The notes beneath the pieces are model-generated. The model saw nothing but the letters and a program-made list of their open reading frames with translations. It did not search any database and was not told the DNA's origin. The position numbers and the translations under genes are program-made. From an uncultured Acidobacteriota bacterium (GTDB lineage Bacteria; Acidobacteriota; Vicinamibacteria; Vicinamibacterales; 2-12-FULL-66-21), in assembly GCA_963697775.1 (NCBI GenBank), contig CAVOPH010000010.1, positions 11,136 through 75,135 on the forward strand: 64,000 nt of DNA. Direction: 5' to 3'. Below are positions 3,124-51,383 of this stretch, one piece after another (position 1 is the stretch's first letter; every line of letters starts with the position of its first letter).

Positions 3124-3672
3124 ATGTTTTTCCGCGCTCGCCACGATCGTGGGTTCTCGGTTATCGAGCTGATGATGGTCGTGTTGATGATCGGCACGCT
3201 CGCCGCCATCGCCGTGCCGGTCATGACCGACATGACGGCCAGCATCAAGCTCAATGAGGCGGCGCGGATCGTCGAGCGCGAGATGCAGGACGCTCGTTTG
3301 AAGGCCGTGTCGTCGAACCGGGTGATTCGAGTCCGGCTCAATTGTCCTGCTGCCGGCTATATCCGCAGCGTGGAGGTGCTCGGCACCGCCGCCGACAACG
3401 CATCGAACCGCTGCATGACGACGCCCTATCCGTTTCCGCCGCCAGACGACGACATCATGACCCGGCCGAATTTCGACGGACCGGTTCGAGTGCTGCCCAA
3501 CGCCGCCACGGTCACCAACGAGGTGTTGCAGTTCAGCCCTGACGGCACAGCCGTCAGCGTCATCAACGGGACGCCAACGACGATCGCGACGCCGGTGACG
3601 GTGACGATCTCGCGCCACGGGAAATCAAAAACAGTGACGGTCAACAGTGTCGGCAAAGTTCAACTCCAATAA
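3124..3672 (+). CDS. GspH/FimT-like minor pilin
   Basis: Class III signal peptide RG|FSVIELMMVV; C-terminal FSPDG...VTVNSVGKV. Confidence 0.85.
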   Translation: MFFRARHDRGFSVIELMMVVLMIGTLAAIAVPVMTDMTASIKLNEAARIVEREMQDARLKAVSSNRVIRVRLNCPAAGYIRSVEVLGTAADNASNRCMTTPYPFPPPDDDIMTRPNFDGPVRVLPNAATVTNEVLQFSPDGTAVSVINGTPTTIATPVTVTISRHGKSKTVTVNSVGKVQLQ

Positions 3673-45402: not shown

Positions 45403-46340
45403 CCCTCGCGCTCAGCTTCGTCGTGCCGATGTACAACGCCGCACCGACGATTGCCGCGCTGGTCCGCGATATCGAGAGCCTCGTCGTCGAGGGCGGTCAC
45501 GAGATTGTGCTGGTGAACGACGGCGGGTCCGACAACACGCTGGACGTGTGTCGCGGTCTGGCGCGGACGACGCGGGTTCCGCTCACCGTCATCGATCACG
45601 CGCGCAACTTCGGCGAACACAACGCCGTGCTGACCGGATGGCGCCACGCGCGCGGCGCCCACATCGTCAATCTCGACGACGACGGGCAGAATCCTCCGCG
45701 TGAGGCGCTCCGCCTGTGGCTGCGTGCGAAGGCCACCGGCGCCGATGTCGTGTTCGGACACTATGAAACCAAACAGCACTCGGCCTGGCGGAACTTCGGC
45801 AGCTGGCTGACGAATCGTTTCACCGACTGGGCGCTCGACAAGCCTTCGGGTTTCTACCTCTCGAGTTTCCGCTGCGTCAGCGCCTTCGCGGCTCGGGAAG
45901 TCGTGACCTATGCCGGCCCCTATCCCTACATCGACGGACTTCTGCTCCAGGTCACGCAACGATTCGATTCGCTGGTCGTCGAGCACGAGCCGCGCCGTCA
46001 GGGGCGGAGCGGTTACACGTGGCGGCGGCTTCTTCGTCTGTGGTTGAGCGCGTGGCTGAACTTTTCGCTGCTGCCGCTCCGGCTCGCGACGTTTGCCGGT
46101 CTGACGACGGCGGCGCTGGGCCTCGTGGCATTCTTCGCGGTTTTGTGGCTGTGGTTCGTGAATCGCGGTCCGGGTTACGGCTTTGGCTGGCTGATGGCCG
46201 CGTTCCTGATCTTTTCCGGTACGCAGCTCGTGATCCTCGGATTGATTGGTGAATATCTTGGGCGGATGTTCCTGACCGTCAACCAGCGGCCGCAGGCGGT
46301 GATCCGTGAGGTCATCTCCAGCGAGAGAGTCAATCAATGA
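45399..46340 (+). CDS. GtrB/ArnC-like polyprenyl-phosphate glycosyltransferase (GT2)
   Basis: VPMYN, RNFGEHNA, LDDDGQNPP, two C-terminal TM helices, GLIGEYLGR. Confidence 0.88.
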   Translation: MTLALSFVVPMYNAAPTIAALVRDIESLVVEGGHEIVLVNDGGSDNTLDVCRGLARTTRVPLTVIDHARNFGEHNAVLTGWRHARGAHIVNLDDDGQNPPREALRLWLRAKATGADVVFGHYETKQHSAWRNFGSWLTNRFTDWALDKPSGFYLSSFRCVSAFAAREVVTYAGPYPYIDGLLLQVTQRFDSLVVEHEPRRQGRSGYTWRRLLRLWLSAWLNFSLLPLRLATFAGLTTAALGLVAFFAVLWLWFVNRGPGYGFGWLMAAFLIFSGTQLVILGLIGEYLGRMFLTVNQRPQAVIREVISSERVNQ

Positions 46341-47872
46341 TCTCCATCCGTCTTCGCTGCATCGCAACCGTGCTGGTGACATTTGTCATCTGGATACCCA
46401 GCCTTGTCGCTCAGGAGAAGCCGAACATCGTCCTGATCGTGACCGACGATCTCGGCTACGGTGACGTCTCCTCGTATGGCGCGACAGCCGTGCAGACGCC
46501 GAACATCGATCGTCTCGCCAAGGCCGGCCTGCGGTTTACGGATGCACACTCGTCGGCGGCAACCTGCACGCCATCACGGTATGCGCTCCTCACTGGTGAG
46601 TACGCGTGGCGCAAGCCCGGCACGGCGTTCTTCCCGGCGATGCCGCCCTGATTATCGAGTCTGGACGAACGACTCTGCCGTCGATGCTCAAGGGTGCTGG
46701 CTACGCGACGGGCGTCGTGGGGAAGTGGCATCTTGGTCTCGGGCCCAAGGGTGGCCCTGATTGGAACGGCGCTGTGACCCCGGGACCGAACGCCGTCGGA
46801 TTCGACTCGGCGTTCATCATGGCGGCGACTGGCGACCGTGTCCCGACGGTCTACATCGAGGATCAGCGCACGTCCGGCCTGGAAGCCGCCGATCCGATCT
46901 CCGTCAGCTACGGCACACCGGTCGGCGACTGGCCAACCGGGAAGGATCATCCGGAGCTTCTGAAGATGCACCCGAGCCATGGCCACGATCAGACGATCGT
47001 GAACGGGATCAGCCGGATCGGCTACATGACCGGCGGGCGAGGTGCACTGTGGAAAGACGAAGACATGGCGGACGTCTTCACGTCCAAGGCTGTATCCTTC
47101 ATCGAAACGCACAAGGACCGCCCGTTCTTCCTCTATTTCGCCACGCACGATCCGCACGTCCCGCGGGTGCCGCATCCTCGCTTCGCGGGCAGGACGACGA
47201 TGGGCCCGAGGGGTGATGCGATTGTCGAAGCCGATTGGTCGGTGGGCGAGGTGCTCAACGCCCTCGATCGGCTCAAGCTCACGAACAACACGTTGGTGAT
47301 CTTCACGAGCGACAATGGTCCGGTGGTAGATGATGGCTACAAAGACGATGCCGTGGCAAAGCTTGGGCAGCACAAGCCGGCCGGTCCTTACCGCGGTGGG
47401 AAGTACAGCAACTTCGAAGGCGGCACGCGAGTGTCGTTCATCGTGCGGTGGCCTGGGCACGTTAACGCCGGGACGTCGGACGCGCTGGTGTGCCAGGTCG
47501 ATCTCCTGGCGTCGCTTGCGACGTTAACCGGTCAATCCGTCGCCGGCGCGGATCTTCACGACAGCGCTGATGTGTTGAACGCGCTCATCGGGAAATCGAA
47601 ATCAGGCCGCAGTGAGCTCGTCGAGGAAGCGGGCGCGCTGTCGCTGCGGCAGGGTAACTGGAAGTACATCGAGCCGAACAACAAGCAGAAGGTCAACACC
47701 AACACGAACACGGAGCTTGGCAACGACAGCGTGCCTCAGCTGTACGATTTGAGTCGTGATCCTGGCGAGAAACGAAACCTCGCGTCTGGCGATCCCGATC
47801 GCGTGAAGTCAATGGCGGCCGCGCTCGATCGGCATCCGCGCGGCCAAAGCCCGAGCGTCATACAATCATTGA
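46337..47872 (+). CDS. Secreted arylsulfatase, formylglycine-dependent (frameshifts near 46622 and 47830)
   Basis: KPNIVLIVTDDLGYGD, CTPSRYALLTG, GKWHLG, FTSDNG, EGGTRV, QLYDLSRDPGE. Confidence 0.9.
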
Positions 47873-47886
47873 GATTCAGCCATCAG

Positions 47887-48604
47887 ATGAAATGGATTCT
47901 CCGGGCAGTCGTCGTGTTGGTGCTCGTCTACGGCGTGCTGTTCAGCGCGGTCGCCATGGCGATGATCCAGACGCCGGAGCGTTTCGGTGCGTTCATGAAG
48001 CGAATGCCGGCTGCTGTTGTGTGGGGCGGACTGCCTGCCAGGCGCATGTGGCTGTGGGCTCGTCGCGGCGATCTCGCCGAGGGCGATCTGGCTCCCGACT
48101 TCAGCCTGCGCACGACGCAGGATCGTGCCCGACGCGTCTCGCTTTCGTCCTATCGTCGTGATCGGCCGGTTGTCCTCGTCTTCGGCAGCTACACTTGACC
48201 GCCATTTCGCCGGGCGGTGCCCGCGCTCAATCGTCTCTATCGCGATTATCGCGATCGGGCCGCATTCCACGTCGTCTATATCGAGGAGGCGCACCCGATC
48301 GATGCGTGGCAACTCGATGACAACGTCGAGGATGGCGTCCTGGTCAAGACGTACGCAAACCGCGGAGGAGCGTGACGAGGTCGCTCACCTCTGCGTCGTG
48401 AAGCTCGGCATCGAAATGCCTGCGCTCGTTGATGACCCAGACAACCGAGTGGAGCGTGCCTACACGGCGTGGCCCGATCGCCTCTACGTGATCGATTCAG
48501 CTGGCCGAATCGCCTATAAAAGTCTCGCGGGCCCGTTTGGGTTCAAGCCGGATGAGCTTGAAGCGGTGCTGAAGCGGATCGTGCCGATGACCATGACGAA
48601 GTAG
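47887..48604 (+). CDS. Iodothyronine-deiodinase-like thioredoxin-fold protein; probable selenoprotein (TGA 48196-48198 = Sec); one frameshift near 48352
   Basis: APDFSL...RPVVLVFGSYT-TGA-PPFR...VYIEEAHPIDAW...LVDDPDNRVERAYTAWPDRLYVI; the frame continues with deiodinase motifs past the TGA. Confidence 0.85.
48208..48226 (+). promoter_or_regulatory. Putative bacterial SECIS hairpin
   Basis: CGGGC-GGT-GCCCG stem-loop; the loop G begins 17 nt after the UGA. Confidence 0.6.
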
Positions 48605-48642
48605 GCCTGCGCAGTGGCTCACGAACCAGCCGTCGACGGGCA

Positions 48643-49044
48643 CTACGTGCGCTTCGGGTCTTCGACACGGGTGAGCCGCTTCTCGTGGTCGTCCAGGCGC
48701 ACCGCGTGGTGAGCCGTTGCTTCGGCAACGAGTTTGACGGACTCCTGCATTTTCTCGACCATCACGTCGAAATGACGACGAGTCTTCACGCCTTCTGCCT
48801 GCATTTCGGCTCGAAGCTTGACGCCTTCAGCCTTCATTTCCGTGCGAAGCTTCTCGAACTCACCGTCGATGCGGTTGAAGCGTTCATCCACAATGTTGAA
48901 GCGTTCATCCACAGCGTTGAAGCGTTCATCCACAGCGTTGAAGCGTTCATCCACAGTGGTGAAGCGTTCATCCACAGTGGTGAAGCGTTCATAAACTTTC
49001 TTGAACTGCTTACGCATCTCGGTTCGCAGATCGTCGGTCGCCAT
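48643..49044 (-). CDS. Small coiled-coil protein with VDERFxx heptad repeats
   Basis: (V)DERF(T/N)(T/A/I) x5-6 and KLRxEMxAEGV x2; extended -10 TGCTAGGAT just upstream. Confidence 0.7.
   Translation of the reverse strand: MATDDLRTEMRKQFKKVYERFTTVDERFTTVDERFNAVDERFNAVDERFNIVDERFNRIDGEFEKLRTEMKAEGVKLRAEMQAEGVKTRRHFDVMVEKMQESVKLVAEATAHHAVRLDDHEKRLTRVEDPKRT
48874..48992. repeat. 21-bp coding tandem repeat, about 5.6 copies
   Basis: Unit g(t/g)tgaagcgttcatccaca(at/gc/gt). Confidence 0.95.
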
Positions 49045-49238: not shown

Positions 49239-51383
49239 TTACCGCGGCAGCGCTGTGGCAGGCGGGCCCAGGATCCGCTGCAGCTCCCGCGACCACTCGA
49301 GAGTGAGCACCGCGTGCGCGGGCGGCGCCTCGCCACCGACGCGCGCGAGCATCCGGTCGCCGGCGATCGCAACGACGGTGGCGCCTGCCGGCGTGGGGAT
49401 CAGGATTGGCGCACCAACCGGATGGCCCGATTCGTCAATGGCCACGCGCATCGTTGCATGTCCCACCCGATAAACGAGCGAATTGCCGCTCGCCGACCAC
49501 ATTGGCTCGCGTCCGCCGGACGACGACACCGGAATGCGCTGACGATCGATGAGCTTCAACAAATAGATCTCCCACCGACCAGATTCATCGGATTGATAGG
49601 CGAGCCAGCGGCTATCCGGCGACAGCACGCCGTTGGTCTCGTCAAACGCCGTCTCGATCGACGCGACCGTCGCTCCGTTCGAGAGCTCTGCCACCTTGAC
49701 GTCGCCGCGTGCCGGGCCACCGCTCTCTGTGTACGCCATCAGTCTTCCGTCGAGCGAGATGGAAGTCGGAAAGACATGTCCATGAACGGCGGTCGCCGAC
49801 AGCGCCAGCCTGGCGGGTGCGGCGCCGGATCCGTCGCGCATCCACGCTTCAAAGCGGCCGCCATTTCTCGCCGCGTAGTAGACGCTCGCGCCGTCCCTGC
49901 TCCACACCGGATTGACGTTCGTGCCGCCATGCGTCAATCGCGTCGTCGTGCCCCGGCTGACGTCGCCAACCCAGAGGTCGCCGTTCGTGACGCCAGCGAC
50001 GCGCGAACCGTCCGACGTGGCCGTGAGATCCGCGAATGCTGCCAGGTCGCCGGAGACCGCCGCGCCAGTCGCGGGTATCCAGGTCAATGATGGCCGCGTG
50101 CTGTCGTTCGTCAGCGCATAAGCCAGGGCGCCGGACGAACCGACCGCGAACTGCGCTCGGGGCACGTTGTTGACCACAGTTTCGTCGGTGCCGGCAATCG
50201 CTTGACGCGCGCGGTCGAAGGCGACGGCGTGGATCTCCGTCCCGCGTGAGAACGCGAGGTAGTCCTGCGACGCGGCTCGGGCGATGTCGGCGTTGTCCAG
50301 AATCGTCTGCCATGCCGTGCGTTGGCCGATCGGCATCAATGCGATGCGCGCCGGGGCTTCGTCATGCGGCGCCGTCGCCACGGTGAAGAGCAGCGCCCGG
50401 CCGCCTGGCGCGAGCGCGGGCCAGCAGTGTCGCACCTCGCCCGTATCTGCCGACGGGAGCGTGAGCGGCTCCGCCTCGCCGCCGCCTTCAATCACCCGCA
50501 TCAACCCGCCTCGCTCCGAAGCAGCAAAAACGATGTGACCATCGGGCAGCCAGACCGCGCCGAACGGCTGCGACGCTTCAGCAATCACGACCGGCATGCC
50601 GCCGGCGACGGCGACCCTTCGCAGCTTGCCCGCGGCGAAGAAACCAATCCATCGTCCGTCCGGAGAGAAGAACGGCGCACTCGCATCCTCGGTGCCGGGA
50701 ATCGCGCGCGGGTCGAGCTGATCCAGCGCGCGAACATACAATCGGCACGCGGCATCGCATGCCGACCATGCGAGGACCTGACCGTCAGGGGACAGCGCCA
50801 GCGCGGGCGCGCGGGTATCGAAGGCGGTGCCCGCCACCGGTTCGATGCGCATTCTGACAACCGGGGCGAGCGGCGCCCGGAAGTGCGTGTACTGCCAGAC
50901 CGCGATGACCGCCAGCACCGTGCACAGCGCCGCGATTGCCCACGGCAGGAGCTGACGGCCGATCGAGGGCGCGTTCTCTTCCTCTCCAGTCCTGCGAGGC
51001 GGCGCGATTGCCGCAGCCTCGGGTGGAGTCGAGGGAAGGGGCACGACAGGGGCCACGAACCGGTAGCCCCGGCGATGCACGGTCTGGATGTACCGAGGCG
51101 CCTGCGGATCGTCGCCAAGCGTCTGACGCAGGACGCTGATGGCTTCCGCCAGCGAGGTGTCCGTGACGAACGCATCCTTCCAGACCGTGTCGATAAGGGC
51201 CTGCCGGGACACGATGGCTCCAGCTCGCGAGACGAGGAACTCGAGCACACCGAGCACACGCGGGGGAAGCGGGAGCTCGCGTCCTTCGTTGCGCAGCAGA
51301 CCATTCGTGCGGTCGAAGACGAAAGGACCGAAGCCCACCGTTGCGGGGACAGGTGGAACCGGGTCGGTTTCGGCCGGAAGCAT
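49239..51383 (-). CDS. CadC/ToxR-type winged-helix regulator + TM + TolB-like (PD40) beta-propellers
   Basis: FGPFVFD..LIDTVWKDAFVTDTSL..YIQTVHRRGYRF; TM helix; repeated SPDG motifs, YQSDESGRWEIY. Confidence 0.85.
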   Translation of the reverse strand: MLPAETDPVPPVPATVGFGPFVFDRTNGLLRNEGRELPLPPRVLGVLEFLVSRAGAIVSRQALIDTVWKDAFVTDTSLAEAISVLRQTLGDDPQAPRYIQTVHRRGYRFVAPVVPLPSTPPEAAAIAPPRRTGEEENAPSIGRQLLPWAIAALCTVLAVIAVWQYTHFRAPLAPVVRMRIEPVAGTAFDTRAPALALSPDGQVLAWSACDAACRLYVRALDQLDPRAIPGTEDASAPFFSPDGRWIGFFAAGKLRRVAVAGGMPVVIAEASQPFGAVWLPDGHIVFAASERGGLMRVIEGGGEAEPLTLPSADTGEVRHCWPALAPGGRALLFTVATAPHDEAPARIALMPIGQRTAWQTILDNADIARAASQDYLAFSRGTEIHAVAFDRARQAIAGTDETVVNNVPRAQFAVGSSGALAYALTNDSTRPSLTWIPATGAAVSGDLAAFADLTATSDGSRVAGVTNGDLWVGDVSRGTTTRLTHGGTNVNPVWSRDGASVYYAARNGGRFEAWMRDGSGAAPARLALSATAVHGHVFPTSISLDGRLMAYTESGGPARGDVKVAELSNGATVASIETAFDETNGVLSPDSRWLAYQSDESGRWEIYLLKLIDRQRIPVSSSGGREPMWSASGNSLVYRVGHATMRVAIDESGHPVGAPILIPTPAGATVVAIAGDRMLARVGGEAPPAHAVLTLEWSRELQRILGPPATALPR

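Follow-up and report, generated by a model that had tools for sequence, protein, structure and literature searches.

A deiodinase-like gene with a predicted selenocysteine codon and SECIS hairpin in an uncultured Acidobacteriota bacterium

Introduction

Deiodinase-like selenoproteins of bacteria were catalogued in 2005 by Zhang, Fomenko and Gladyshev, whose survey of the Sargasso Sea lists four forms with selenocysteine (Sec) and six with Cys, together with bacterial selenocysteine insertion sequence (SECIS) elements, and gives their function as unknown (PMC1088965). The Global Ocean Sampling (GOS) data hold 22 Sec-containing deiodinase-like sequences according to a further survey (PMC2398784), the bacterial family appears in the selenoprotein lists of reviews from 2022 and 2026, and two reviews label its motif "UxxC". 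Here we describe a putative member of this family from an uncultured Acidobacteriota bacterium of the order Vicinamibacterales. The DNA analyzed is a stretch of 64,000 nt (contig CAVOPH010000010.1 of assembly GCA_963697775.1, positions 11,136 to 75,135), hereafter called the window, in which a first-pass annotation, made from the sequence letters without database searches, had proposed a hidden, membrane-anchored selenoprotein resembling iodothyronine deiodinases at positions 47887-48604 of the forward strand. Judging from this sequence and its relatives, we put at roughly 0.87 the probability that this Acidobacteriota genome has, at 47887-48604, an intact and functional Sec gene belonging to the deiodinase-like family of bacteria (PF00837).

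The locus is not a new kind of gene, going by the 2005 catalogue (PMC1088965), and as a new member of a described family it leaves current understanding unchanged by itself. A literature search returned no paper that joins Acidobacteria, selenoprotein and deiodinase, and none with an experimental test of a bacterial deiodinase-like member. This selenoprotein appears to have been hidden from automated annotation twice, by its UGA codon and by what is very probably an assembly indel.

Results

Gene layout and reading frame

The gene extends from an ATG at 47887 to a TAG at 48602-48604 and encodes about 238 amino acids if a single extra base (48350) is skipped. In frame 1 the protein begins MKWILRAVVVLVLVYGVLFSAVAMAMI and reaches VLVFGSYT directly before a TGA at 48196-48198, where the open reading frame (ORF) ends in a conventional listing. 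Translation agrees with the earlier claim that the same frame runs on beyond this codon: reading through the TGA gives PPFRRAVPALNRLYRDYRDRAAFHVVYIEEAHPIDAWQLDDNVEDGVLVK, which contains the stretches PPFRRAVPALNRLY and VYIEEAHPIDAW. The read-through product thus has the form MKW...FGSYT-TGA-PPFRR...YIEEAHPIDAW, followed by a switch of frame at the surplus base, and the frame-2 ORF, which holds TQTAEERDEVAHLCVVKLGIEMPALVDDPDNRVERAYTAWPDRLYVIDSAGRIAYKSLAGPFGFKPDELEAVLKRIVPMTMTK, including LVDDPDNRVERAYTAWPDRLYVI, closes at the TAG. The TGA, which corresponds to residue 104, lies within the active-site motif F-G-S-Y-T-U-P-P-F (48181-48207). Further downstream, the segment YIEEAHPIDAW (48277-48309) carries the edge of loop D along with proton-relay residues of deiodinases (Tyr, Glu, His and Trp), and the frame-2 codon of Cys169, a candidate resolving cysteine that is present in at least 90% of 36 aligned sequences, occupies 48392-48394. 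The two halves of the window gene share 92% and 90% identity with L025, the closest intact orthologue found.

Conservation of the selenocysteine codon

One genome per species was scanned with sequence patterns; this yielded 169 relatives, and the best 80 loci, most of them from metagenome-assembled genomes of Acidobacteriota with a few from Dormibacteria, Gaiellaceae and Opitutaceae, were kept. At the active-site column these 80 loci hold TGA in 59 cases, Cys (TGC or TGT) in 20, CGA (Arg) in one and TAA or TAG in none; one of the retrieval patterns was back-translated through Cys, so the ratio of TGA to Cys among them is not an unbiased one. Sixteen of these 20 Cys loci are members of a group that is more distantly related and has the sequence FGSYTCPNF. 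One Cys-form locus (L087) comes from a genome flagged as unpublished (G041), which enters this count and that of Cys-form genomes with selA, given below, and contributes to no other result. Among 40 relatives, a full-length copy was found in five genomes (four of the same genus and one of the same order), each with exactly one in-frame TGA, again at this column. Of 201 sampled genomes from the order, 22 gave a match and 17 gave one above the cut-off; every full-length copy (14 of 14, the window counted) has exactly one TGA, and the remainder are partial or weak. The reading frame is conserved on both sides of the TGA, and Cys stands at the TGA column in homologues, which is the pattern used to recognize bacterial selenoproteins.

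We also compared Logan contigs from four soil or rhizosphere metagenome runs with the window over 47600-48900. Contigs from all four runs span the codon at 48196-48198, and no other letter occurs there among the rows listed (40 of 58). Both the comparison of homologues, which the earlier annotation had proposed as a check, and these contigs spoke for a genuine TGA, at a column that holds TGA or Cys in nearly all homologues. Deiodinase-like genes occur commonly in soil Acidobacteriota and nearly always in the Sec form, as the counts above for the order and for the best 80 loci indicate, and in this the present clade differs from the deiodinase-like members known from marine metagenomes. At E <= 1e-5, and for the lengths that the search covered, public protein sets contain 495 relatives, under names such as peroxiredoxin, thiol-disulfide isomerase, iodothyronine deiodinase and "deiodinase-like protein [Vicinamibacteria bacterium]". 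When 1.84 billion representatives were searched with a profile, 498 clusters were obtained at E <= 1e-30, many of them with further domains fused.

Several individual sequences depart from the common pattern at or around this column. A Terriglobia orthologue (L069) has CGA (Arg) at its positions 3235-3237 in place of the Sec codon and keeps most of the hairpin described below; this may be a recent change from TGA to CGA, or the locus may be a pseudogene or contain an error. A full-length homologue predicted by the Joint Genome Institute (P0010) has Trp at the Sec column, presumably because TGA was translated under a code in which it means Trp, an annotation artefact that hides a selenoprotein. 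In an orthologue from the same order (L022, 1387-2127, reverse strand), TGA apparently serves both as Sec codon and as stop. In the Cys paralogue clade with FGSYTCPNF (L092-L107), a long N-terminal region precedes the deiodinase-like domain in the same open frame, an architecture that resembles the 347-position NCBIfam model NF038285, and this clade sometimes shares a genome with a Sec form, for example on one contig that carries both L061 and L095. Finally, the depth of metagenome contigs rises several-fold over 48172-48259, where the active site and the hairpin lie, with many loose ends, which indicates that this highly conserved stretch is common to many other organisms of the soil.

A SECIS hairpin directly downstream of the UGA

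A hairpin at 48209-48226 of the forward strand consists of a 5-bp G+C stem, 2 bp beyond a 1-nt bulge, and the apical loop GGU (48216-48218). Its core, CGGGC (48211-48215), GGU and GCCCG (48219-48223), was located as the first-pass annotation had described it, with a loop that opens at the 18th base past the A of the UGA and 17 nt between the two. Published limits for a bacterial SECIS (bSECIS), in the form given by PMC13188914, are a loop of 3-9 nt, an upper stem of 4-16 bp, a G in loop positions 1-2, a distance of 16-37 nt from the UGA and a minimum free energy <= -7.5 kcal/mol. The window hairpin, with GGU, 5 + 2 bp, 17 nt and -11.3 kcal/mol, falls within all of them, in agreement with the first-pass annotation.

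To the comparative evidence we gave more weight than to any single fold. An alignment of 64 sequences (58 distinct) over the UGA and the following 57 nt showed conservation of stem columns 14-20 with 24-30 and of loop columns 21-23, with G21 and G22 of the loop invariant in all 64. Paired cells amount to 93.3%, as against 52.7-67.5% with partners displaced by 1-3 columns; compensatory changes on both sides occur in five of the seven pairs, and none of 500 shuffles matched the observed value on any of five measures. Terriglobia, this genus, L022 and L089 have independent stems in one register, namely GGCGGGA-GGU-UCCCGCC, CGGGC-GGU-GCCCG, GGCGCCA-GGC-UGGCGCC and CCCA-GGU-UGGG, respectively. Codon usage points the same way. 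The Arg codon at +5 is CGG in 59 of 59 sequences and the Glu codon at +6 is GAG in 55 of 55, with GAG and GAA used 41 and 20 times for the Glu at +30; Pro at +8 is restricted to CCC and CCT, codons that each pair with G17, and Pro at +2 uses all four codons. This restricted choice at +5, +6 and +8 shows constraint on synonymous sites within the hairpin. When Cys-form loci were folded, eight of nine lacked a hairpin at the place of the SECIS; parts of it are kept in L083, a recent conversion to Cys, and in the Arg locus L069.

In these respects the locus resembles the bacterial family as set out in the 2005 survey (PMC1088965), which has PF00837, Sec or Cys at the same column, and a SECIS directly 3′ of the UGA with a G in a small apical loop. 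It differs from animal deiodinases, whose SECIS is an element of the 3′ untranslated region, in that the hairpin lies in the coding region. We propose that the UGA at 48196-48198 would be decoded as selenocysteine and that the hairpin at 48209-48226 would act in the mRNA as a bacterial SECIS, recruiting SelB charged with Sec-tRNA(Sec).

Selenium machinery of the source genome

Because the first-pass annotation would have fallen with a genome devoid of Sec machinery, the presence of selA, selB, selD and tRNA-Sec, two of them frame-broken in the assembly, bears directly on it. The selA gene is intact (536.7 bits), and a tRNA-Sec was found at 62.6 bits, with the anticodon tca according to ARAGORN. 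The selB gene (contig C4:75880-77776; L004, L010) scores 299 bits and has a C-terminal piece in another frame, the profile being covered over 1-324 and 380-578; this break is probably another assembly indel. The pieces of selD (contig C12:3674-4520; L012-L015) alternate between two frames and include an in-frame TGA in the context C-A-G-U-A-S-K, which is shared with two relatives (G015 and G007), so the genus has at least one further conserved Sec codon. Among relatives, selA is present in all five genomes with the TGA form and in three of five sampled genomes with the Cys form.

The frameshift at 48350 and competing readings of the TGA

In comparison with four congeneric orthologues, the window gene has exactly one added base, AAGA[C]GTACG at position 48350 of the forward strand, which shifts the frame. 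This base is omitted by the covering contig in each of the four metagenome runs, and one such contig, of 173 nt, is otherwise identical to the window. Similar lesions occur elsewhere. An extra G at 47831, in the upstream sulfatase gene, is absent from three relatives and from the sole run that covers the position; it removes the sulfatase stop, and the sulfatase ORF is thereby falsely fused to the selenoprotein gene. The selD gene of the source genome carries about six scattered 1-nt indels relative to that of G007, which is intact (354 bits, one TGA), and G015, likewise an assembly of few contigs, has a differing set of indels. The rpoB and rpoC genes are intact over 8.5 kb, which implies that the indel noise is patchy. 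Since the base is missing from the covering contigs of all four runs and from the congeneric orthologues, and since sulfatase and selD carry similar indels, we consider the frameshift very probably an artefact of assembly. The "one indel" of the earlier annotation is accordingly real as a single extra base, now placed at 48350, and does not stand as a feature of the gene.

Some observations weigh against an intact and functional Sec gene. Folded alone, the window hairpin is no more stable than chance would give (-11.3 kcal/mol, z = 0.38; 122 of 200 shuffles fold as well or better), and it is for want of a signal above shuffles in the single sequence that we relied on comparative evidence instead; that evidence in turn draws on few covarying lineages and on a region that also codes for conserved residues. 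Both selB and selD are frame-broken beside intact rpoB and rpoC, which leaves some room for the strain to be genuinely losing its Sec trait. The best-matching metagenome run may be the source sample, in which case it does not count as independent support. A rival proposal is that the 48350 frameshift is real and that the gene is a pseudogene of a strain losing selenocysteine use. Such a proposal would account for the joint breakage, within one genome, of the deiodinase-like gene, selD (at least three frame changes) and selB (two frames) while rpoB and rpoC stay unbroken, and it could treat the metagenome contigs as derived from sister strains. We nevertheless regard it as quite unlikely. A contig of the four runs lacks the base with no mismatch elsewhere over its 173 nt; save for this base both halves of the gene stay open at 90-92% identity to the intact orthologue; selA and tRNA-Sec are intact; and the adjoining sulfatase, an unrelated gene, shows like 1-nt indels. 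In selD, the indel sets differ between G015 and the source genome and the many-contig G007 is intact, a pattern of consensus noise and not of inherited lesions. The source genome itself is in 17 contigs, yet has a marker completeness of 67%.

It is far less probable still that the TGA is a true stop, leaving a 103-aa membrane peptide and a separately initiated C-terminal ORF, as many gene callers annotate the region; public protein sets do include 130-aa fragments that begin at VPALN right after the TGA. A stop codon would be hard to reconcile with a column at which none of 80 loci has TAA or TAG and 20 have Cys, with a frame kept across the TGA in the middle of a fold domain and at its catalytic residue, or with the covariation in the SECIS, and the GTG start chosen by gene callers falls within the conserved hairpin. 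Hardly credible, finally, is a misread TGC or TGT in an ordinary Cys enzyme. The assembly is error-prone, but the errors observed are indels and not substitutions, the TGA is common to all four congeneric orthologues and to the 14 full-length copies of the order, and among the listed rows of the metagenome contigs that cover it no other letter occurs. An intact Sec gene thus remains our preferred reading of 47887-48604.

Fold and membrane anchor

A scan of the 5.46-Mb, 17-contig genome with the Pfam profile T4_deiodinase identified 47887-48604 as the sole locus, in adjoining pieces in different frames that score 57.5 bits (profile 74-162, with one TGA) and 34.5 bits (profile 161-235). Scanned directly, the halves of the window gene score 64.3 and 36.4 bits with PF00837, both above the gathering score of 27 bits, which bears out the expectation that the read-through translation would match this hidden Markov model (HMM), and the intact orthologue L025 scores 107.1 bits. 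A sequence search of the PDB returned mouse Dio3 (4tr3, E 5.8e-21) and Dio2 (9h48, E 1.1e-17), with identities of 27-32%. An AlphaFold2 model was made of L025 in place of the frame-broken window ORF (predicted local distance difference test, pLDDT, 92.2); it shows a helix at residues 2-26 followed by a thioredoxin-type domain, and Foldseek ranked 9h48 (TMt 0.83) and 4tr3 (TMt 0.78) first and second, ahead of ResA, DsbE and AhpE. In the modeled orthologue, then, the fold is that of the deiodinase catalytic core, and for both fold and active site the nearest matches are Dio2 and Dio3 of the mouse.

The hydrophobic helix at residues ~2-26 (47890-47964, forward strand) is a predicted membrane anchor or signal-anchor, with a mean Kyte-Doolittle value of 2.66 over 19 aa; 59 of 64 rows hold a 19-mer with a mean >=1.9. 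Together with the helix of the L025 model, this is consistent with the N-terminal anchor that had been postulated at the outset. The predicted architecture, a single N-terminal hydrophobic helix and then a thioredoxin/peroxiredoxin-fold catalytic domain with the deiodinase insertion, is that of DIO1-3, and the helix sets the protein apart from the bacterial family as described. Basic residues flank the helix in an arrangement that is ambiguous for topology (typically 2-5 Lys or Arg before it and 1-3 after). Two Cys-form homologues (L088 and L090) have N-termini that resemble signal peptides, as does the adjoining sulfatase, and these features hint that the deiodinase-like protein might be extracytoplasmic, a topology that would distinguish it from DIO1-3. 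The orthologue L022 has no N-terminal hydrophobic helix.

The active site and its relation to animal deiodinases

In the alignment of 36 sequences, G100, S101, U/C104, P105, F107, R108, Y131, I132, E134, A135, H136, W141, N146, P178, D182, W195 and P196 are invariant and Cys169 nearly so. The motifs FGSxT-U-PPF and YI(E/D)EAHPxDxW are both found, as in DIO1-3, with which the protein also shares residues of the relay and stacking set (Ser, Thr, Tyr, Glu, His and Trp). The claim that SYTU replaces SCTU was borne out: mouse Dio3 has SCT-U and Dio2 SAT-U, so that the bacterial protein has Tyr before Thr-Sec where deiodinases have Cys or Ala. For Dio2, a proton relay of S127, T129, Y157, E160, H162 and H182 has been proposed in PMC11592359; when residues were mapped by counting along the PDB alignment with the numbering given in that paper, five of the six (Ser, Thr, Tyr, Glu and His) proved to be conserved, and the stacking Trp is kept. 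The soil clade thus retains the U-P-P-F active site of the animal type and most of the proton relay. An abundant, well-defined clade with an intact active site offers a practical entry point to deiodinase chemistry outside animals.

Position +3 from Sec is an invariant Phe in the 36-sequence alignment, as in animal deiodinases, and Cys does not occur at +3 in the 30 commonest motif classes (90 of 99 regex-matched sequences among the best 150 representatives). The "UxxC" label of the two reviews therefore does not describe the present clade, a comparison that concerns the motif label as printed there.

Possible chemistry

In the proposed mechanism, the product of about 238 aa would combine the single N-terminal membrane helix with a thioredoxin/peroxiredoxin-fold domain in which Sec104 would be the nucleophile of a deiodinase-type pocket formed by S101, T103, Y131, E134, H136 and W141. 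Resolution of the oxidized selenium would probably fall to Cys169, which is nearly invariant, or to an external thiol. If the protein is a Sec enzyme, we tentatively suggest, at somewhat less than even odds, that it may attack a small aromatic substrate reductively, with the dehalogenation of halogenated phenolics as the most plausible reaction.

A number of results count against deiodinase-like chemistry. The AhpC-TSA profile (PF00578, cut-off 26) also clears its cut-off, at 50 bits for L025 and 37.2 bits for the N-terminal half of the window gene, as does Redoxin at 35.8 bits for L025, and NCBIfam NF038285 reaches 191.7 bits, short of its cut-off of 250, over positions 179-339 of 347. The match to this last model is limited to its C-terminal 160 positions, and the architectures differ. 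The second relay His (Dio2 His182) aligns with Thr156, and the carboxylate clamp formed by Dio3 Arg275 (Dio2 Lys241) is replaced by Ala (...YKSLAGPFGF...). The selenium-centered catalytic core and the deiodinase-specific insertion thus appear to be kept and the iodothyronine-specific contacts lost, and one would not expect thyroid hormones to be substrates of the bacterial enzyme. In the same-order orthologue L022, the second relay position is still occupied by His (...GQHQDFKER...).

A Sec enzyme could alternatively be a peroxiredoxin-like or ResA/TlpA-like extracytoplasmic thiol or selenol oxidoreductase that reduces peroxides or disulfides and has no dehalogenase activity, the main functional rival, which we rate as the second choice after dehalogenation. 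The two profile matches just cited would fit it, as would ResA, DsbE and AhpE as the next-best folds; AhpE, BCP/PrxQ, ResA and DsbE/CcmG share the fold and the AhpC-TSA and Redoxin matches. Peroxiredoxins and thioredoxin-fold oxidoreductases also have a Ser three residues ahead of the reactive residue, and a distal resolving Cys is possible in them, a role that the nearly invariant Cys169 could play here. An N-terminal anchor is found in ResA, TlpA-type proteins and CcmG, the N-termini of L088 and L090 are like signal peptides, and the losses of the second relay His and of the Arg clamp are as this alternative would have them. Against it, the protein has a reactive Sec and no CxxC motif, its +3 residue being the Phe described above; PF00837 scores about twice as high as AhpC-TSA; and the deiodinase insertion with its edges (YIEEAHPxDxW, N146) is invariant, which would be hard to explain for a peroxide substrate. 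Reductive dehalogenation thus remains the chemistry that we tentatively favor.

Gene neighborhood

A sulfatase gene (PF00884) lies upstream at 46337-47872 of the forward strand, with a change of frame near 46606-46651 in addition to the extra G at 47831. The sulfatase stretch (46337-47886) has a signal-like N-terminal sequence and a CTPSR motif, and its true stop is probably the TGA at 47870-47872, 14 nt ahead of the ATG at 47887. Three further congeneric genomes (L023/L029, L024 and L025/L028) also have a sulfatase upstream of the deiodinase-like gene; in a fourth (L026/L030), only a sulfatase fragment was found, downstream of the deiodinase-like gene. Among the 85 loci searched, a 28%-identical sulfatase occurs upstream of two Opitutaceae Cys forms, and the neighbor is otherwise conserved in the genus only.

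The 14-nt gap from stop to start underlies a more specific and improbable idea, that the clade comprises extracytoplasmic, membrane-tethered, selenium-dependent reductive dehalogenases of soil Acidobacteriota that would remove I or Br from phenolic organohalogens and that would be co-transcribed in this genus with an exported arylsulfatase, desulfation of sulfated halophenols coming before dehalogenation. Animals handle iodothyronine sulfates, and if this idea were true it would be a bacterial parallel to that process and might point to an evolutionary origin of deiodinase chemistry. As a general clue to function the neighborhood was set aside as weak, with the sulfatase limited mainly to the genus and the neighbors of a Terriglobia locus (L035) not conserved: of these, Sel1, CarboxypepD_reg and PAP2 occur in L035 alone, and a pyridine-nucleotide disulfide oxidoreductase occurs in 6 of the 85 loci. 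An all-against-all clustering of flanking ORFs was dropped since it was dominated by spurious ORFs of high G+C content, and a scan for promoters and terminators gave nothing relevant and nothing above chance.

Two further ORFs lie downstream on the reverse strand. The first (48643-49044, 133 aa) contains about six copies of a tandem repeat, (T/N)xVDERF (ERFTTVDERFTTVDERFNAVDERFNAVDERFNIVDERFNRID), with weak matches to Pfam families of the coiled-coil type, and its relatives adjoin the deiodinase-like gene in two (L024 and L026/L030) of the four further congeneric genomes that have that gene. The second (49239-51383, 714 aa) encodes an OmpR-type winged-helix domain (Trans_reg_C) followed by PD40/TolB-like beta-propeller repeats, and is a neighbor conserved in the genus.

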